DNA of 64,000 nt from Shigella phage JK36: the sequence record MK962754.1. One strand, given 5' to 3'. Below the pieces are notes generated by a model. The model saw nothing but the letters and a program-made list of their open reading frames with translations. It did no database searches and was not told where the DNA came from. Below, in pieces: positions 2,990 to 48,308 of the stretch. Position numbers and translations under genes: made by a program. How positions within the stretch are numbered: the stretch's first letter is position 1; the number at the start of each line of letters is the position of its first letter.

Positions 2990-3230
2990 CTCGGTCCCAT
3001 GATTTGGCCATTAATTCGGACATAAATTCTTCAATGCGCGTTTCTTTAGATGGACTTTCACTATTAGAGACCGCAAGTTTGTAATCTGCAATAGGACAGA
3101 ACATATCAAGGTCCATATTAAGGTCGTCTTTGATTTTTTCTTCTGACACATCTTTATCGTATGTGTACAGATAACTATCACATGATTCTGATTTAATGTA
3201 AATTGCTATACTCATCTCAAATTCCTGCAT
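2979..3230 (-). CDS. hypothetical protein (83 aa)
   Basis: ORF with ATG; start overlaps the ECR codons of upstream gene; no recognisable motif. Confidence 0.4.
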   Translation of the reverse strand: MQEFEMSIAIYIKSESCDSYLYTYDKDVSEEKIKDDLNMDLDMFCPIADYKLAVSNSESPSKETRIEEFMSELMAKSWDRDDE

Positions 3231-3709
3231 TCGGTAATAAAACGTTCAACTTCATTATTCTTGGCCTTTATCTTGTCTTTACGTTCCTGTAAACTACTTT
3301 TAACAAGATTAATAATGATGCCTACAGTACCTCCACCAATAATACCACCAATAATACTTACGATAGTAGATGCTAATAAGATAGCAATAATATCAACAAA
3401 ACCGAAAGAACTCACCTTAGTACTAAAAAACCATACCGACGGTACAAATATAATCCATCCTGTTATCCATTGGCACTTATTGAAAAACTTTTCAAGCTCA
3501 GCTTGAGTTGTTCGTATTACTTCATCGATAGGTTGATATCCATTAATGTATCTGTTCACGATAATACCTGCTGGCTGGTCGATTTTAAATTCTTGGCAAA
3601 TATGATTCACTAAGTAGGATGGACATCCTGTCCAATCTACTGAATAGTATGAAATACCTTCGTTGCCATCGTCTATATTAGACCAATATGTTTTGTTAAT
3701 CATTACCAT
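3212..3709 (-). CDS. membrane protein, 'FIxECR-tail' family member (165 aa)
   Basis: Hydrophobic segments (IIAILLASTIVSIIGGIIGGGTVGIIINLV); C-terminal tail ...NNEVERFITECRNLR shared with 4 paralogs. Confidence 0.45.
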   Translation of the reverse strand: MVMINKTYWSNIDDGNEGISYYSVDWTGCPSYLVNHICQEFKIDQPAGIIVNRYINGYQPIDEVIRTTQAELEKFFNKCQWITGWIIFVPSVWFFSTKVSSFGFVDIIAILLASTIVSIIGGIIGGGTVGIIINLVKSSLQERKDKIKAKNNEVERFITECRNLR

Positions 3710-4389
3710 CCTTCCATAGGGAATTCCAGATAAACTTGGGCATTGACACGAATTTCATTGGTAATCTTTTTAACTCGGTCTGTATTACGAGATACACGTC
3801 CGAACCAACGCCATCCGTTACTAATTGCACGAGAACCAGTGTGCCATGTTTGCCAATCAAACTGAAGAAGAGTACGATCTGGAGCTTCCCATTTCTCTAG
3901 TTCACCTTTTTCAATTTTTTCGAGGACTTCTTTGTGCCACTGGCGATAGATAAGTTCGCCATCAGGAATCTGACTGAACTCTGCAGTTCCTGTTGCAAAA
4001 TGAGTAGGACACACGTCAGCGTTAACAAGACCAAGAATATGTTCAGAATGGTAACGAGGGTTGTCATAGTCAGGTTGTCCTGCAGTAATAAAGTGTTGAC
4101 CAACTGGAATATCAGGGCGAGGAACATCGTCATGGTGGTATCCAGGAATAGCAGGATACCAACCAGGCATCAGCATATGAACCCGAGAATCAAATACAAC
4201 ATGTTGATTAGTCCAATCAATTGGGAGATTGGCAATAAAGCTACGAGTGATTGAGCCACCATTATCCCAAGCAAAACCCAAATCACAGTTAAAGAACATT
4301 GGTTCATTTTTGATTCGGTCATTTTGTACGTTATGTGCAAAACTACCTACTGCACGAGCTTGACTATTAAACACTTTAGAACTATTCAT
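3703..4389 (-). CDS. hypothetical protein (228 aa), His-rich motifs
   Basis: Long ORF in operon context; motifs PGWYPAIPGYHHDDVPRPD and HSEHILG; function unknown. Confidence 0.5.
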   Translation of the reverse strand: MNSSKVFNSQARAVGSFAHNVQNDRIKNEPMFFNCDLGFAWDNGGSITRSFIANLPIDWTNQHVVFDSRVHMLMPGWYPAIPGYHHDDVPRPDIPVGQHFITAGQPDYDNPRYHSEHILGLVNADVCPTHFATGTAEFSQIPDGELIYRQWHKEVLEKIEKGELEKWEAPDRTLLQFDWQTWHTGSRAISNGWRWFGRVSRNTDRVKKITNEIRVNAQVYLEFPMEGW

Positions 4390-4390
4390 A

Positions 4391-4696
4391 TTATTTTCCT
4401 CGGCATTCTTTAATGAAATTTTCTAGATTGGTAGATTCAATAGCTTTTTTACGAGCTTCGGCATGTTCTTCTTCAGACAATTTACATTTATAATTGACCC
4501 AGACATTATGGTCGAAACTAGTCGTGGCATATAATAACAATGCTCCAACGAATAGCAAAAACGGCGATAAGAATACAAAACCAGGAACACCATCCATATC
4601 GTACGCCTTTTGTAATACTGCAACAGAAAGAGCTGCGTAAAAAGGTGATGCAAATATTGTTAAAAGGCCAATTCGGTTGGTTTCGCCTAATTTCAT
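4391..4696 (-). CDS. small 2-TM membrane protein, 'FIxECR-tail' family (101 aa)
   Basis: Two hydrophobic helices; C-terminal ...ESTNLENFIKECRGK; ATG with GAGGAGA RBS; PeSL upstream. Confidence 0.5.
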   Translation of the reverse strand: MKLGETNRIGLLTIFASPFYAALSVAVLQKAYDMDGVPGFVFLSPFLLFVGALLLYATTSFDHNVWVNYKCKLSEEEHAEARKKAIESTNLENFIKECRGK

Positions 4697-4711
4697 AATA
4701 TTCTCCTCATG

Positions 4712-4756
4712 TTTTAATAGGACTACTATAATATAGCCCTATCAGTTTGTACACTT
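4712..4756 (-). promoter_or_regulatory. early promoter / PeSL-like cassette
   Basis: ATAGGACTACTATAATATAGCCCTATC stem-loop (GATAGG/CCTATC-type inverted repeat) with -35-like element; upstream of 4391..4696. Confidence 0.5.
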
Positions 4757-4955
4757 ATTTTGACATTTCTTCGATGTCACGACGATACCCATCACGAACT
4801 TCACGAAGAGCTTCAAGGCCACACATAGGCTCGATACCAGTAATGTGAACTTGATTAATCTGATACTCTACATCTTCTAACTGAGCGAAAACATAACGAC
4901 GTTCTGCTGCACAACCAGGTTTAGCTTTACCGAAACGTTTATTCAAAGTAGTCAT
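4755..4955 (-). CDS. hypothetical protein (66 aa)
   Basis: ORF-track start 4973 is GTG; ATG at 4955 (MTTLNKRF...) follows a PeSL cassette. Confidence 0.4.
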   Translation of the reverse strand: MTTLNKRFGKAKPGCAAERRYVFAQLEDVEYQINQVHITGIEPMCGLEALREVRDGYRRDIEEMSK

Positions 4956-6020: not shown

Positions 6021-6260
6021 TTAAATTTCACGACATGCGATATTATATTCATCCCAGAGGTCATCATGTGAAGCCTCTACCAATGGAACGATTGTACCGT
6101 TTATGTCTTCATTATAAGGGCAAATTGTACAGTGCGCATCTTCGAATCGGATGCCTTTGTGTTCAGATTTTTTATAACGCATATCGAATATCTTTGCAAA
6201 CTTTTCACGAGTAATGGTTTTACCAACCACTTTGGTTCCGATACTTTCGTAATAAATCAT
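6021..6260 (-). CDS. small Cys-containing protein (79 aa)
   Basis: Start moved to ATG with GGAG RBS (MIYYESIG...); contains HCTICP motif; follows PeSL. Confidence 0.45.
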   Translation of the reverse strand: MIYYESIGTKVVGKTITREKFAKIFDMRYKKSEHKGIRFEDAHCTICPYNEDINGTIVPLVEASHDDLWDEYNIACREI

Positions 6261-6273
6261 TGTGGACTCCATT

Positions 6274-6320
6274 TGTTTTGATAGGACTACTATAACATAG
6301 CCCTATCTTGTTGTAAACTG
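6274..6320 (-). promoter_or_regulatory. early promoter / PeSL-like cassette
   Basis: Minus GTTTAC (plus 6313-6318), spacer, TATAGT, stem-loop GATAGG..CCTATC. Confidence 0.55.
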
Positions 6321-6322
6321 TT

Positions 6323-6520
6323 TTAGCAAGAATAACTAGATGATACCCAGCCTTGAACAGTGATACTATTGTGGGATAATGAGATCGCGTCCTGGAGATT
6401 CAGACCTGCGTTATCTTCAATCCATAATGTAACTTCTTCGCGTTCTTCTGTTGCAATTTGGAACAGGTTTTCCAGAGCAGCTACTGCCGTACGTACAGCA
6501 CAATCTAATTCACGAGACAT
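6323..6520 (-). CDS. small protein, 'WVxSSxxC' paralog 3 (65 aa)
   Basis: C-terminus ...QGWVSSSYSC; N-terminal helix similar to neighbours; tandem with 6530..6802 and 6812..7117. Confidence 0.5.
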   Translation of the reverse strand: MSRELDCAVRTAVAALENLFQIATEEREEVTLWIEDNAGLNLQDAISLSHNSITVQGWVSSSYSC

Positions 6521-9131: not shown

Positions 9132-9359
9132 TTATTTTTTAATCAAATTGACATAAAACTTGGCGTCTTCGGGGTGCATGCCTTCGCAGTATTCTTCAAC
9201 CATGAACTTCTTAACAGCTTCATAAGGACCACTCAGATTAAGCTCAGTTGTCCAGAACTTGGAATCTTGGACTGAATCGATACGAACTTCAGGGTGGCGG
9301 TTGCGAATAACTTCTTCTGTGTATTCATAATCAACGACATCAATACTAACTTTAGCCAT
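9132..9359 (-). CDS. hypothetical protein (75 aa)
   Basis: ATG at 9359 preceded by PeSL cassette. Confidence 0.45.
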   Translation of the reverse strand: MAKVSIDVVDYEYTEEVIRNRHPEVRIDSVQDSKFWTTELNLSGPYEAVKKFMVEEYCEGMHPEDAKFYVNLIKK

Positions 9360-9365
9360 TTTGTT

Positions 9366-9418
9366 TTCCTCTTGATTTGATAGGACTACTATAACATAAA
9401 CTTACTTAGATGTAAATT
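9366..9418 (-). promoter_or_regulatory. early promoter / PeSL-like cassette
   Basis: TTGATAGGACTACTATAACATA plus -35-like TTTACA (minus); upstream of 9132..9359. Confidence 0.5.
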
Positions 9419-9570
9419 ATTTCAACGTCACCTTTAGCTGCTTTATAACCTTCAGCCCAAGATACAACAGAGTTTTTATCCGAGGATTCAAATTCAGGCA
9501 TTGGACTTTCACCAATATTCACACAGTATGTTTCTTCATTTTCATCGAACCAAATAATTAAAGTAGTCAT
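9406..9570 (-). CDS. hypothetical protein (54 aa)
   Basis: ATG at 9570 (MTTLIIWF...) with GAGGAG RBS inside conserved cassette; upstream ORF-track extension lies within promoter. Confidence 0.4.
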   Translation of the reverse strand: MTTLIIWFDENEETYCVNIGESPMPEFESSDKNSVVSWAEGYKAAKGDVEIIYI

Positions 9571-11468: not shown

Positions 11469-11544
11469 TGGTCGAGACAGTAGGGATCGAACCTACGACC
11501 TAGGACTTAGAAGGTCCTTGCTCTTCCTTCTGAGCTATGCCTCG
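11469..11544 (-). tRNA. tRNA-Arg (anticodon TCT)
   Basis: Hand-folded cloverleaf on minus strand: acceptor CGAGGCA/TGTCTCG, T-loop GGTTCGATCC, anticodon loop CTTCTAA, CCA encoded. Confidence 0.8.
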
Positions 11545-11548
11545 TATT

Positions 11549-11623
11549 TGGCGGACGTGATAGGATTCGAACCTATAACCAATCGCTTAACAGGCGATCG
11601 CTCTGCCATTGAGCTACACATCC
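11549..11623 (-). tRNA. tRNA-Asn (anticodon GTT)
   Basis: Acceptor GGATGTG/CACGTCC, T-loop GGTTCGAATCC, anticodon loop CTGTTAA, CCA encoded; not in T4's set. Confidence 0.75.
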
Positions 11624-11627
11624 AAAT

Positions 11628-11714
11628 TGGTGGGGAGTGATGGAGTCGAACCACCCGAGTCGCAATGACAATGGATTTACAGTCCACACCGCTACCTCTA
11701 CGGGATAACTCCCC
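11628..11714 (-). tRNA. tRNA-Tyr (anticodon GTA), long variable arm
   Basis: Acceptor GGGGAGT/ACTCCCC, anticodon loop CTGTAAA, long variable arm, CCA encoded; not in T4's set. Confidence 0.75.
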
Positions 11715-11726
11715 TAATTCATAATT

Positions 11727-11801
11727 TGGTGGCCCTGGGTGGAATTGAACCACCATCTGGCGATTATGAGTCGCTTGCTTGAACCTTCCAGCTACAGGGC
11801 C
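11727..11801 (-). tRNA. tRNA with anticodon CAT (Met, or Ile2 if lysidinylated)
   Basis: Acceptor GGCCCTG/CAGGGCC, T-arm GGTGGTTCAATTCCACC, anticodon loop CTCATAA. Confidence 0.7.
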
Positions 11802-11802
11802 T

Positions 11803-11878
11803 TGGTGCTGATTGACGGAATCGAACCGCCGACCTTCTCATTACAAGTGAGTTGCTCTACCTACTGAGCTAAATCAGC
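11803..11878 (-). tRNA. tRNA-Thr (anticodon TGT)
   Basis: Acceptor GCTGATT/AATCAGC, T-loop GGTTCGATTCC, anticodon loop CTTGTAA. Confidence 0.8.
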
Positions 11879-11883
11879 AAAAC

Positions 11884-11973
11884 TGGCGGAGGCGATAGGA
11901 TTTGAACCTATGAGTCGCCGGAGCGACTGCCGGTTTTCAAGACCGGTGCATTAAACCACTCTGCCACGCCTCC
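11884..11973 (-). tRNA. tRNA-Ser (anticodon TGA), long variable arm
   Basis: Acceptor GGAGGCG/CGCCTCC, anticodon loop CTTGAAA, long variable arm, CCA encoded. Confidence 0.8.
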
Positions 11974-11975
11974 AG

Positions 11976-12049
11976 TCTCCATACAAGGATTTGAACCTTG
12001 GACCTCCTGATCCCAAATCAGGCGCTCTACCAAACTGAGCTACACGGAG
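11976..12049 (-). tRNA. tRNA-Pro (anticodon TGG), CCA not encoded
   Basis: Acceptor CTCCGTG/TATGGAG, anticodon loop TTTGGGA; 3' end followed by CTG not CCA. Confidence 0.75.
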
Positions 12050-12059
12050 TAAATTAAAT

Positions 12060-12133
<74 letters not shown>

Positions 12134-12138
12134 AAATT

Positions 12139-12225
12139 TGGTGCGAGAAGTGGGACTCGAACCCACAAGGAAATCATTCCGCAGCATTTTAAGTGCTGTG
12201 CCTTTACCAATTTGGCCATTCTCGC
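12139..12225 (-). tRNA. tRNA-Leu (anticodon TAA), long variable arm
   Basis: Acceptor GCGAGAA/TTCTCGC, anticodon loop CTTAAAA, long variable arm. Confidence 0.8.
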
Positions 12226-12226
12226 G

Positions 12227-12299
12227 CTGGGAATAAAGGACTCGAACCTTTGCATCCTGGAATCAAAATCCAGTGCCTTACCAACTTGGCTAATTCCCA
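12227..12299 (-). tRNA. tRNA-Gln (anticodon TTG), CCA not encoded; 1 nt from tRNA-Leu
   Basis: Acceptor TGGGAAT/ATTCCCA, T-arm AAGGTTCGAGTCCTTT, anticodon loop TTTTGAT. Confidence 0.75.
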
Positions 12300-13085: not shown

Positions 13086-13275
13086 TTTTATCCATAACGA
13101 TAGCGATTAAACCGATTAGAAATGCTACTACCAATGAGATAGAATTTTCTGTTGTTGTCAGTAGTCCACAAATGAATCCTACAAACATCGAAAAACTAAA
13201 AGCCATTGAAGCAATTACTACAGCAACATTACGAATCAGTTCAGCGCGTTTCATTTTATTTCTCCATTTACTCAT
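13069..13275 (-). CDS. small membrane protein (68 aa)
   Basis: Two hydrophobic helices (VAVVIASMAFSFSMFVGFICGLL / LVVAFLIGLIAIVM); ATG after PeSL cassette. Confidence 0.4.
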   Translation of the reverse strand: MSKWRNKMKRAELIRNVAVVIASMAFSFSMFVGFICGLLTTTENSISLVVAFLIGLIAIVMDKIAKGE

Positions 13276-13277
13276 TT

Positions 13278-13322
13278 GATTTGATAGGACTACTATAACA
13301 TAATCCTATCATCATGTAAACT
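13278..13322 (-). promoter_or_regulatory. early promoter / PeSL-like cassette
   Basis: TTGATAGGACTACTATAACATAATCCTATC stem-loop; minus GTTTAC at plus 13316-13321. Confidence 0.55.
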
Positions 13323-13324
13323 AT

Positions 13325-13612
13325 TTACAGAAGAGTTTTTGCAATAATTTTAAGCTGAGCTACAGAAATGTGCTTAGCTTTAAACAGTGCAGTCTCTTCA
13401 GCCGGAGAGATAACAATAGTAGCGCCGTCTTTCTTAGCAGACCATCCATCCCCTAAGTAAACAGTACCTTTTACTTCTTCGCCGTCAACCAGACTAATCA
13501 TTGGTTTACCCTCACGTCCTTTATTTGCTTTAATAACTTCGGAAGTAAGGGTTGCTTCGGTCAGAGTAGAAACATTAGCAACAGGTGATATAAATTCTTT
13601 ATAGGTTTTCAT
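13325..13612 (-). CDS. ipI: internal protein I-like capsid-targeted protein (95 aa)
   Basis: MKTYKEFISPVANVSTLTEA... CTS-like; 95 aa and position adjacent to 57B as T4 ipI; symbol by position only. Confidence 0.55.
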   Translation of the reverse strand: MKTYKEFISPVANVSTLTEATLTSEVIKANKGREGKPMISLVDGEEVKGTVYLGDGWSAKKDGATIVISPAEETALFKAKHISVAQLKIIAKTLL

Positions 13613-43357: not shown

Positions 43358-44170
43358 ATGATCAAAGAACAACTTTTGAAAGAAGCTCAGAACATCGAGA
43401 CTTCAGTTGCTCTTAATAGTGTTTTCGAATCAGTAGAACTGTCTCCGGACGTTAAAGCTAATTTCAGCACTGTATTCGAAGCCACCGTTAAGCAGGAAGC
43501 AGTCAAACTTGCTGAATCTCATATCAAAGCCATCGCCGAAAAGGCCGAAGAAGAAGTTGAAAAGGCTAAAGAAGATGCTGAAGAGAAAGCTGATAAAAAA
43601 TTGGCTGAACAAGCTTCTAAATTCCTAGACCATCTTGCAAAAGAATGGCTCGCAGAAAACCAAATCGCAGTTGATAAAGGCATTAAAGCTGATTTGTTCG
43701 AATCCATGCTTGGTGGTCTGAAAGAACTGTTTGTTGAACATAACGTTGTTGTTCCAGAAGAATCTGTAGATGTTGTAGCAGAAATGGAAGAAGAGCTGGC
43801 CGAACATAAAGAAGAAACCGCTCGTTTGTTCGAAGAAGTTACCAAACGTGATGCATATATCAATTACGTTCAGCGTGAAACCGCTATTAATGAAAGCGTA
43901 AAAGACCTGACTGAATCTCAGAAAGAAAAAGTTATTGGCCTGGTTGAAGGTATGGATTATTCTGACGCATTTGGTACTAAGTTAACTGCTATTGTAGAAA
44001 TGGTTAAAGGTTCTACTAAAGAAGAAGCCGCTATTACCGAAAGTATAAATACAGTTGACAATGACGCTGCCGGTCTTAATTTTGTTGCCGAAGCAGTTGA
44101 CACTACCACAACTCAGGTAGAACAGAATTCTAATGTAAGTTTATATGCGAAAGTCGCATCTCGTTTCTAA
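43358..44170 (+). CDS. 22: gp22 prohead core scaffold protein
   Basis: 270 aa acidic coiled-coil; synteny. Confidence 0.9.
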   Translation: MIKEQLLKEAQNIETSVALNSVFESVELSPDVKANFSTVFEATVKQEAVKLAESHIKAIAEKAEEEVEKAKEDAEEKADKKLAEQASKFLDHLAKEWLAENQIAVDKGIKADLFESMLGGLKELFVEHNVVVPEESVDVVAEMEEELAEHKEETARLFEEVTKRDAYINYVQRETAINESVKDLTESQKEKVIGLVEGMDYSDAFGTKLTAIVEMVKGSTKEEAAITESINTVDNDAAGLNFVAEAVDTTTTQVEQNSNVSLYAKVASRF

Positions 44171-44577
44171 TTTAAAGGTTAACACAAATGACTACTATCA
44201 AAACTAAAGCTCAGCTCGTAGACAAATGGAAAGAACTGCTGGAAGGTGAAGGCCTGCCGGAAATCGCTAATAGCAAGCAGGCTATTATCGCTAAAATCTT
44301 CGAAAACCAGGAAAAAGATTTCGAAGTATCCCCTGAATATAAAGACGAGAAAATCGCTCAGGCATTTGGTTCTTTCTTGACCGAAGCTGAAATTGGTGGT
44401 GACCATGGTTATAATGCTCAGAACATCGCAGCGGGTCAAACCTCTGGTGCAGTAACCCAAATTGGGCCGGCAGTTATGGGTATGGTTCGTCGTGCTATTC
44501 CTAATCTGATCGCTTTTGATATTTGTGGTGTTCAGCCTATGAACAGCCCGACCGGTCAGGTATTTGCTCTCCGTGCA

Positions 44578-45422
44578 GTATATGGTAAAGACCCTATCGC
44601 TGCTGGCGCTAAAGAAGCTTTCCATCCGATGTATGCTCCAGATGCGATGTTCTCTGGTCAGGGTGCTGCTAAGAAATTCCCAGCTCTGGCTGCTGACACT
44701 ACTACTGTTGTAGGTGATATCTATACTCACTTCTTCCAAGAAACTGGTACTGTATATCTGCAAGCTTCTGCTGTCGTAACACTTGATTCTGGTGCAACTG
44801 ATGCAGCTAAATTAGATGCAGAAGTTAAGAAACAAATGGAAGCTGGTGCACTGGTAGAAATCGCTGAAGGTATGGCTACTTCTATCGCTGAACTCCAGGA
44901 AGGTTTCAACGGTTCTACCGATAACCCATGGAATGAAATGGGCTTCCGTATCGATAAACAAGTTATCGAAGCTAAATCTCGCCAGCTGAAAGCTGCTTAC
45001 TCTATCGAATTAGCACAAGACCTCCGTGCAGTACACGGTATGGATGCTGATGCTGAATTGAGCGGTATTCTGGCTACAGAAATTATGCTAGAAATCAACC
45101 GTGAAGTTGTTGATTGGATTAACTACTCTGCACAGGTTGGTAAATCTGGTATGACCCTGACTCCGGGTTCTAAAGCTGGTGTATTTGACTTCCAGGACCC
45201 GATTGATATCCGTGGTGCTCGTTGGGCCGGTGAAAGCTTTAAATCTCTGTTGTTCCAGATTCATAAAGAAGCAGTTGAAATTGCTCGTCAAACCGGTCGC
45301 GGTGAAGGTAACTTCATTATCGCTTCCCGTAACGTAGTTAACGTACTGGCTTCAGTTGATACTGGTATTTCTTACGCTGCACAGGGTCTGGCTTCTGGTT
45401 TTAATACCGACACTACTAAGTC
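44578..45422 (+). repeat. tandem direct repeat, copy 1 (845 bp)
   Basis: Identical to 45423..46267 except C at 45262 (G at 46107). Confidence 0.95.
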
Positions 45423-46267
45423 GTATATGGTAAAGACCCTATCGCTGCTGGCGCTAAAGAAGCTTTCCATCCGATGTATGCTCCAGATGCGATGTTCTCT
45501 GGTCAGGGTGCTGCTAAGAAATTCCCAGCTCTGGCTGCTGACACTACTACTGTTGTAGGTGATATCTATACTCACTTCTTCCAAGAAACTGGTACTGTAT
45601 ATCTGCAAGCTTCTGCTGTCGTAACACTTGATTCTGGTGCAACTGATGCAGCTAAATTAGATGCAGAAGTTAAGAAACAAATGGAAGCTGGTGCACTGGT
45701 AGAAATCGCTGAAGGTATGGCTACTTCTATCGCTGAACTCCAGGAAGGTTTCAACGGTTCTACCGATAACCCATGGAATGAAATGGGCTTCCGTATCGAT
45801 AAACAAGTTATCGAAGCTAAATCTCGCCAGCTGAAAGCTGCTTACTCTATCGAATTAGCACAAGACCTCCGTGCAGTACACGGTATGGATGCTGATGCTG
45901 AATTGAGCGGTATTCTGGCTACAGAAATTATGCTAGAAATCAACCGTGAAGTTGTTGATTGGATTAACTACTCTGCACAGGTTGGTAAATCTGGTATGAC
46001 CCTGACTCCGGGTTCTAAAGCTGGTGTATTTGACTTCCAGGACCCGATTGATATCCGTGGTGCTCGTTGGGCCGGTGAAAGCTTTAAATCTCTGTTGTTC
46101 CAGATTGATAAAGAAGCAGTTGAAATTGCTCGTCAAACCGGTCGCGGTGAAGGTAACTTCATTATCGCTTCCCGTAACGTAGTTAACGTACTGGCTTCAG
46201 TTGATACTGGTATTTCTTACGCTGCACAGGGTCTGGCTTCTGGTTTTAATACCGACACTACTAAGTC
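45423..46267 (+). repeat. tandem direct repeat, copy 2 (845 bp)
   Basis: Direct repeat of 44578..45422; carries the T4-like Asp codon (GAT) at 46107. Confidence 0.95.
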
Positions 46268-46625
46268 TGTATTTGCCGGTGTACTTGGTGGTAAATACCG
46301 CGTATACATCGACCAGTATGCTAAACAGGATTACTTCACCGTTGGTTACAAAGGCGCTAACGAAATGGATGCAGGTATTTACTATGCTCCTTACGTTGCA
46401 CTTACCCCGCTGCGTGGTTCCGATCCTAAGAACTTCCAGCCGGTAATGGGCTTTAAAACTCGTTACGGTATCGGTGTTAACCCGTTTGCTGAAAGTTCCC
46501 TGCAGGCTCCAGGTGCTCGCATCCAGTCCGGTATGCCATCTATCCTGAACAGCCTTGGTAAGAACGCTTACTTCCGCCGTGTATATGTAAAAGGCATCTA
46601 ATCTTAATTGATTAAATCTTATTTT

Positions 46626-46650
46626 GGGAGACTTCGGTCTCCCATTTTTG
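46626..46650 (+). terminator. rho-independent terminator after gene 23
   Basis: GGGAGAC-TTCG-GTCTCCC hairpin + ATTTTTGGTTTT. Confidence 0.65.
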
Positions 46651-46653
46651 GTT

Positions 46654-46923
46654 TTATTTCTGTGCAATTTCGATGTAAGTTTTCAAAATATTTTGCCAAT
46701 TAGGCATACCTTCTTGGACATATGCCGGAGAACCGTCTTTGTTTTTGAATGATGCAAGTTTATCAGTGGCCCAATAACCTTTAGCTCGAGCTTCAGAATC
46801 AACTTTCATCCATACTTTGTTGAAGGCATTACCATTAACTTTTGCACCATATTTTTCTACTAACTTAACTGCTTCAGCTTCCAGAACTTTTAAAGTATCT
46901 CGTAAGAAACGTGCTTTAGTCAT
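46654..46923 (-). CDS. hypothetical protein (89 aa) at the position of segD in T4
   Basis: ATG 46923 with GAGGAG RBS inside conserved early cassette; not a GIY-YIG endonuclease (too short, no motif). Confidence 0.5.
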   Translation of the reverse strand: MTKARFLRDTLKVLEAEAVKLVEKYGAKVNGNAFNKVWMKVDSEARAKGYWATDKLASFKNKDGSPAYVQEGMPNWQNILKTYIEIAQK

Positions 46924-46985
46924 TTTGTTTACTCCTCTGTAGTTGATAAGTCTATAGTATCACATACCAAATACGTTGTAAACAA
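46924..46985 (-). promoter_or_regulatory. early promoter / PeSL-like cassette
   Basis: 43 nt identical to 9564-9606; minus GTTTAC at plus 46978-46983. Confidence 0.55.
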
Positions 46986-46989
46986 TCTT

Positions 46990-46997
46990 TATAAATA
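46990..46997 (+). promoter_or_regulatory. T4 late promoter TATAAATA (gene 24)
   Basis: Exact TATAAATA 28 nt upstream of gene 24 ATG. Confidence 0.6.
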
Positions 46998-47024
46998 ATC
47001 TATATCACATAAGGAAAAAATGCA

Positions 47025-48308
47025 ATGAGTAAAATCCAAAAATTATTGCGTGAATCTACAACGTCTACTAGCAACTCAATTGGTCGCCCAAATCTCGTTG
47101 CTTTGACTCGCGCTACGACTAAATTAATATATTCTGACATTGTAGCAACACAAAGAACTAATCAACCTGTTGCTGCTTTTTATGGTATCAAATATCTTAA
47201 CCCAGATAACGAATTCACATTTAAAACCGGTGCTACTTATGCTGGCGAAGTTGGATATGTAGACCGAGAAAAAATTACTGAGCTCACAGAAGAATCAAAA
47301 GTCACACTAAATAAAGGTGATTTTTTCAAATATAATAATATCGTCTATAAAGTGTTAGAAGATACACCATTTGCAGATATTCAAGAAAGTGATCTAGAAT
47401 TAGCTCTTCAGATTGCAGTCGTTCATTTAAAGGTACGGTTATTTTCAGATGCAGCGGTAACAAGCAAATTTGAAAGCTCTGGTAGCGAAATTTCTGATGC
47501 AAGATTCCAGATTAATAAATGGCAAACTTCAGTCAAATCTCGTAAACTTAAAACTGGCCTCACGGTTGAATTAGCGCAAGATTTGGAAGCGAATGGATTT
47601 GATGCCCCTAACTTCTTAGAAGATTTGCTTGCTACTGAAATGGCTGATGAAATTAATAAAGATATTCTTCAGTCTTTAATTACTGTATCGAAACGTTATA
47701 AAGTTACTGGAATTACTGACACCGGATTTATTGACTTGAGCTATGCATCCGCTCCAGAAGCAGGTCGTTCATTATATCGAATGGTGTGTGAAATGGTATC
47801 ACACATTCAAAAAGAGACAACTTATACTGCAACGTTTTGTGTAGCCTCAGCTCGTGCAGCTGCTATTCTTGCTGCTTCTGGTTGGTTAAAACATAAGCCA
47901 GAAGATGACAAGTATCTTTCACAAAATGCTTATGGATTCTTGGCAAATGGATTACCTCTTTACTGCGATACCAACAGTCCGTTAGATTATGTTATTGTGG
48001 GTGTTGTAGAAAATATCGGCGAAAAAGAAATTGTAGGGTCCATCTTTTATGCTCCATACACTGAAGGAGTAGATTTAGATGACCCGGAACATGTCGGTGC
48101 ATTTAAAGTTGTAGTTGATCCGGAAAGTTTGCAACCGTCTATCGGATTATTGGTTAGATATGCTTTATCAGCAAATCCTTACACAGTAGCAAAAGACGAA
48201 AAAGAAGCGAGAATAATTGATGGCGGGGACATGGATAAAATGGCAGGACGTTCAGACTTGTCTGTTTTATTAGGTGTTAAGCTACCAAAAATTATCATTG
48301 ATGAATAA
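47025..48308 (+). CDS. 24: gp24 head vertex protein
   Basis: 427 aa as T4 gp24; gp23-like fold. Confidence 0.9.
   Translation: MSKIQKLLRESTTSTSNSIGRPNLVALTRATTKLIYSDIVATQRTNQPVAAFYGIKYLNPDNEFTFKTGATYAGEVGYVDREKITELTEESKVTLNKGDFFKYNNIVYKVLEDTPFADIQESDLELALQIAVVHLKVRLFSDAAVTSKFESSGSEISDARFQINKWQTSVKSRKLKTGLTVELAQDLEANGFDAPNFLEDLLATEMADEINKDILQSLITVSKRYKVTGITDTGFIDLSYASAPEAGRSLYRMVCEMVSHIQKETTYTATFCVASARAAAILAASGWLKHKPEDDKYLSQNAYGFLANGLPLYCDTNSPLDYVIVGVVENIGEKEIVGSIFYAPYTEGVDLDDPEHVGAFKVVVDPESLQPSIGLLVRYALSANPYTVAKDEKEARIIDGGDMDKMAGRSDLSVLLGVKLPKIIIDE

Follow-up and report, generated by a model that had tools for sequence, protein, structure and literature searches.

An 845-nt tandem duplication that breaks the major capsid gene of a T4-like phage sequence is very probably an assembly artefact

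Anatomy of the duplication in gene 23

The stretch of DNA analysed here (64,000 nt, hereafter the window) belongs to a coliphage of the T4-like group. Its identity is 99.4% to Shigella phage JK45 and 99.3% to Escherichia phage APCEc01 over 24 kb, and 99.8% to APCEc01 over gene 23; none of the phage records searched equals the window in sequence. The gene order, running from the lysozyme region to the baseplate, tail, terminase and head genes, agrees with the annotation of JK45. Gene 23, encoding the major capsid protein gp23 that is essential in T4-like phages, occupies positions 44188–46601 of the plus strand; as written, it spans 2414 nt and holds one 845-nt segment in excess. It is flanked by gene 22 (43358–44170, scaffold) and gene 24 (47025–48308, vertex), as in JK45, and these two ORFs correspond to the JK45 genes annotated as "prohead core protein" and "capsid vertex protein". 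The interval 46602–47024, which follows gene 23, contains only an 89-aa ORF on the minus strand (46654–46923). At the matching place, JK45 also carries a 660-nt gene annotated as "segD gene product" (homing endonuclease), a difference that amounts to the presence or absence of a mobile endonuclease gene beside the capsid gene.

Within gene 23, two direct copies of an 845-nt unit lie head to tail on the plus strand, copy 1 at 44578–45422 and copy 2 at 45423–46267. The initial annotation had described them as 844/845 identical, and a script comparison of both stretches bore this out, with C45262 of copy 1 versus G46107 of copy 2 as the sole difference. The script also set the full extent of the repeat, the identity extending by 0 further bases on both sides; the repeat finder had displayed the initial 300 nt of the repeat at an identical 845-nt spacing. 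With a maximum period of 500, Tandem Repeats Finder gave no report of it. It is impossible that a repeat of 845 nt at 99.9% identity arose through chance. Elsewhere in the 64-kb window, no repeat of at least 60 nt was found except a family of 66-nt promoter-like motifs. These intergenic motifs (4694–4759, 6258–6323, 9357–9422 and 13261–13326) are 73–76% identical and have the core GATAGGACTACTATAACATA; read on the minus strand, they resemble T4 early promoters (GTTTAC ... TATAGT/TATTAT) placed before minus-strand early genes, and we take them to be putative promoters of this type. Gene 23 itself contains a 34-nt similarity, 74% identical, between 44569–44602 and 45022–45055 (and their duplicates), which encodes LRAVYGKDPIAAG and LRAVHGMDADAEL. 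This short repetition within the capsid protein sequence has no relation to the boundaries of the 845-nt duplication.

Because the unit begins at base 1 of codon 131 and finishes at base 2 of codon 412 of gene 23 (a length of 3n + 2, not divisible by 3), the reading frame moves by one base at the junction between the two copies. The junction, ...ACTAAGTC/GTATATGG... at 45415–45430, also written ...GACACTACTAAGTC/GTATATGGTAAAG... across the plus-strand boundary 45422/45423, is blunt and has 0 nt of microhomology. Adjacent to the breakpoints, the 8-nt sequence GTATTTGC recurs as a homology, 18 nt upstream of the left breakpoint and 1 nt downstream of the right. Recombination through GTATTTGC would yield an in-frame unit of 864 nt, and the actual junction bypasses it. 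Close to the breakpoints there is also a 4-nt GTAT, shifted out of register by one base and likewise bypassed. A microhomology-mediated duplication was thus rejected, given a junction without microhomology and both GTATTTGC and GTAT out of register. With a start on a codon boundary, an end in mid-codon and a length that breaks the frame, the end points of the unit have no biological logic.

As written, the coding capacity for gp23 is divided between two partial ORFs on the plus strand. The reading from the ATG at 44188 leaves its frame at 45423 and ends with a stop at 45558; its 456 residues comprise 411 native ones and a final 45 out of frame. The native C-terminal part of gp23 is encoded by a 375-aa ORF from an internal Met at 45474 to 46601, which is a by-product of the duplication and no gene. 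Deleting either 845-nt copy regains a single ORF of 522 codons. These two ORFs, the frame change behind them and the regained ORF had all been proposed in the initial annotation, and each was reproduced here. The restored 522-aa product aligns end to end with T4 gp23 (PDB 6uzc_a, residues 2–521), with no gaps over the full span. T4 gp23, the closest known protein, is represented by the Pfam family PF07068 and by PDB entries 6uzc, 7vs5 and 5vf3. The Gp23 profile of PF07068 (376 positions) is complete in neither fragment: it matches the 456-aa ORF over positions 1–282 (E = 9.4e-81) and the 375-aa ORF over positions 74–375 (E = 5.4e-99). The likeness to T4 gp23, namely the gap-free alignment together with gene 22 and gene 24 as neighbours as in T4-like genomes, contrasts with a gene that is split as written, and a single uninterrupted ORF colinear with T4 gp23 is present only after deletion of one copy. 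The true gene 23 is most likely 1569 nt long (522 codons plus the stop).

Rescue of the written gene by a programmed frameshift or by an internal start was considered and rejected. Entering the frame of copy 2 requires a -1 shift at the junction (...ACT AAG TCG TAT ATG...), where no slippery heptamer is found, and the product of such a shift would hold an internal repeat of 282 residues. In addition, the late-promoter motif TATAAATA does not occur inside the 845-nt unit.

Related phages and the quality of the remaining window

Sequence searches revealed no second instance of the arrangement. Among the best 40 of 1040 related phage records none has two copies; against them, a 2601-nt query collapses to 1756 nt, corresponding to one copy. 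A 100-nt probe centred on the junction was covered over at least 80% of its length by none of the 185 matching phage records, and in the best 15 of these 185 the alignments end near the junction. The exact junction strings have 0 matches in IMG/VR, JGI metagenome contigs and GTDB genomes, and the junction probe has no match in complete E. coli genomes or PLSDB plasmids. Exact-protein look-ups of the 456-aa and 375-aa products showed that neither is recorded as a called gene product.

The remaining window is clean. Stop-to-stop frames of at least 80 codons in the window were compared with those of JK45, and the results given here concern the JK45 frames of at least 100 codons that were matched in the window. 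Apart from gene 23, all gene-matching frames equal their JK45 counterparts in length, save one frame lengthened through a 13-nt insertion and one that the window end truncates; a further length exception is a non-coding antisense frame. Many of the matched frames show 100% protein identity. Where the window and JK45 differ by indels, these are multiples of 3, pairs that compensate each other within variable stretches, or changes in homopolymer length, the last of which break none of the compared frames. Gene 23 is the sole broken gene among the JK45-matched frames. Given that these frames are intact and that the 845-nt repeat is unique, the sequence is a polished assembly of good quality in which one structural defect stands alone. 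Homopolymer frameshifts, as signs of a noisy long-read assembly, were looked for and not found in the JK45-matched frames, and a generally poor assembly was rejected.

Several other differences from relatives were observed in the window. In gene 23, the stretch 44695–44776 is variable, and relatives differ there by indels. The 13-nt insertion relative to JK45 lies at 3663–3675 and lengthens the minus-strand frame at 3215–3754 from 150 to 180 codons stop to stop; a small hypothetical gene may thereby have a changed N-terminus or start region. A cluster of ten tRNA genes (Arg, Asn, Tyr, Met, Thr, Ser, Pro, Gly, Leu and Gln) occupies 11469–12299 on the minus strand. JK45, the closest relative over this region, has two annotated tRNAs (Arg and Met) at the matching place, and the window diverges from JK45 at about 11.5–13.3 kb. 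At 262–988, about 727 nt have no blastn alignment to JK45, in which the flanks are adjacent. This segment contains two small minus-strand ORFs of 109 and 104 aa, both starting MKTYxEFI..., and the 86-aa ORF next to it (991–1251) has a similar start, MKMYQEFI.... The shared beginnings suggest that the three ORFs may form a small tandem paralogue family.

Origin of the duplication

Genuine segmental duplications and amplifications in T4 typically have boundary homologies of 6–10 bp, or 2–10 bp, of which one copy stays between the repeats (PMC9391042). Such amplifications contain whole genes and are kept through selection for higher dosage (PMC9391042); an example is the Hp17 amplification of genes 16–18 by Wu, Wu and Black 1991, as cited in PMC9391042. 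The present repeat is like the T4 tandem duplications (rII, Hp17 genes 16–18 and dmd-tifA) in that a contiguous segment is repeated head to tail and its size is compatible with headful packaging. However, a boundary homology of 2–10 bp is absent, the junction being blunt with 0 nt of extension and the nearby 8-nt homology unused. Also unlike those cases, where whole dosage-selected genes are duplicated in a viable phage, the unit here comprises codons 131–412 of one essential gene, whose frame is broken and which is thereby destroyed. Recombination in T4 is highly active, and an 845-nt direct repeat would quickly be lost; single-copy viable segregants would arise and outgrow a defective two-copy parent. 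Since the fragments are partial, slippery site and late promoter are lacking and the repeat would be lost by recombination, a two-copy genome cannot be the majority of a plaque-forming stock.

The single mismatch between the copies points in the same direction. Copy 1 has the codon CAT (His359) on the plus strand and copy 2 has GAT (Asp359). As the initial annotation had stated, T4 has Asp at this place, like copy 2, according to the alignment with T4 gp23. Perfect matches to a 61-nt probe numbered 0 among 189 matching phage records when it carried C as in copy 1, and 133 among 204 when it carried G as in copy 2. Judging from these comparisons, His359 is a private, non-conservative Asp-to-His variant. 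The mismatch had initially been taken to argue slightly against an assembler stutter. We read it oppositely, as a private base situated 160 nt before copy 1, and with it presumably the contig, ends. A fresh biological duplication begins with identical copies, whereas independent contig ends need not match, so that the mismatch favours an artefact. Indeed, such a difference is expected between two independently built consensus sequences of one locus, such as contig ends.

T4-like phages package circularly permuted, terminally redundant DNA by the headful mechanism, and the T4-type terminase genes in the window encode proteins 100% identical to those of JK45. We propose the following putative history of the duplication. 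With packaged DNA that is presumably circularly permuted and terminally redundant, reads would assemble into a linear contig with arbitrary ends that could exceed one genome length, its end repeating its start. This contig, or two neighbouring contigs, would have begun at the present position 45423 and ended at the present position 45422, with an overlap of 845 nt; copy 2 would then represent the original 5′ end, carrying the consensus Asp codon, and copy 1 the original 3′ end. Afterwards, the sequence would have been re-opened at the conventional T4 start, or reference-ordered contigs would have been pasted end to end, with the overlap left unmerged. The unmerged overlap would appear as an internal tandem duplication at an arbitrary site, by chance within gene 23. 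C45262 would be a consensus error in the thinly covered final 160 nt of a contig end. In the real genome the unit would be present once, and gene 23 would be an intact gene of 522 codons encoding Asp359.

We thus regard it as very probable that the 845-nt duplication is an assembly or finishing artefact and no feature of the phage genome. The broader statement, that an assembly or finishing error of whatever mechanism produced it, is highly probable. Within this class, a rotated contig with an untrimmed overlap is our best guess at the specific history, which we infer from the anatomy of the repeat. Phage contigs may exceed 100% of the genome length, and it is recommended that duplicated regions be checked (PMC8785237); work on phage assembly workflows reports artificially overlapping contig ends (PMC5923482). 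The locus resembles an untrimmed contig overlap of a permuted phage in being a near-identical direct repeat with arbitrary blunt ends in a headful-packaging T4-like genome, missing from all relatives and independent assemblies searched and forming the sole defect of a clean sequence. It differs from that pattern in that the repeat is internal and not at the sequence ends, which would require a later step of rotation or concatenation. Moreover, the overlap left by the k-mers of SPAdes is typically 127 nt, versus 845 nt here; the explanation therefore requires that two contigs were joined by hand or that the assembler was of the overlap or long-read type. As for the rotation, window base 44100 corresponds to 107.0–108.1 kb in relatives that use the T4 rIIA-start convention. 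Gene 23 of JK45 lies at 108,265, and gene 23 of the window would lie at 108,188 if the window is the assumed tile 64001–128000; on that assumption, the coordinates hint that the source was rotated to the rIIA-start convention.

The initial annotation had named an artefact, a defective genome and a real duplication as options and left them unranked; the evidence now strongly favours the artefact and leaves the other two low. T4-like phages could in principle form a blunt real duplication through non-homologous illegitimate recombination, and this is one of the points against an artefact, besides the length of the overlap and the assumption behind the rotation. It could have arisen in a defective sub-population that is complemented by wild-type phage at high multiplicity and whose variant path entered the consensus. 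T4 does make tandem segmental duplications at measurable rates, and an extra 845 bp fits into the roughly 3.3 kb of terminal redundancy provided by its headful packaging (PMC9391042). Furthermore, a de Bruijn assembler normally writes a junction only if it is present in some reads. Nevertheless, we consider this origin improbable: the junction bypasses an adjacent 8-nt homology and uses no microhomology, unlike the documented T4 events, and a genome that makes no capsids from its partial fragments would be counter-selected. Loss of a copy by homologous recombination would leave such genomes a small minority and not the consensus, and His359 would demand that this rare genome had undergone another event, independent of the first. 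A real duplication fixed in a viable phage, which would obtain its capsid through recoding, fragment complementation or a second capsid gene elsewhere, has a negligible probability. Nothing positive speaks for it in the 64 kb of the genome covered here. It would need the -1 shift without a slippery heptamer, its product would even then carry the 282-residue internal repeat, and neither fragment holds the full Gp23 profile. Nothing similar occurs in the best 40 of 1040 relatives, and the junction is found in 0 of 185; in addition, it is established that T4 recombination would quickly delete an 845-nt repeat and that wild-type segregants would take over.

Technical origins other than an untrimmed overlap were also weighed, namely a long-read stutter, a chimeric read, or a mixed lysate of two near-identical phages that collapsed and expanded in assembly, its contigs breaking within gene 23 and being pasted together. 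They draw on the same anatomical evidence as the preferred explanation, and the indel-variable stretch 44695–44776 of gene 23 could break the assembly graph of a mixed lysate. However, the frameshifts of unpolished long reads are absent and the other JK45-matched genes are intact. C45262, found in no sequenced relative, is unlikely to be the allele of a second strain. We assign a very small probability to these origins; in practice, they are a sub-case of the artefact and call for the same correction.

Consequences for the sequence record

The value of the finding lies in curation, not in discovery. The sequence as written contains a broken essential capsid gene and two spurious ORFs, and its genome is 845 bp too long. 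Left uncorrected, the duplication would mislead annotation, gp23-based phylogeny and comparisons of genome size or ANI. The predicted correction is to remove one copy and to retain the version with Asp359 (46107 G).

Should the junction prove real, it would represent the unusual case of a T4-like phage in which a blunt-ended duplication within an essential gene persists at high frequency. That the duplication is present in a sizeable share of the packaged genomes, as a blunt product of illegitimate recombination maintained through complementation, is highly improbable in our view. If true, it would provide a snapshot of how paralogues of capsid genes, such as gp23 and gp24, begin or, alternatively, a defective interfering genome of a T4-like phage.
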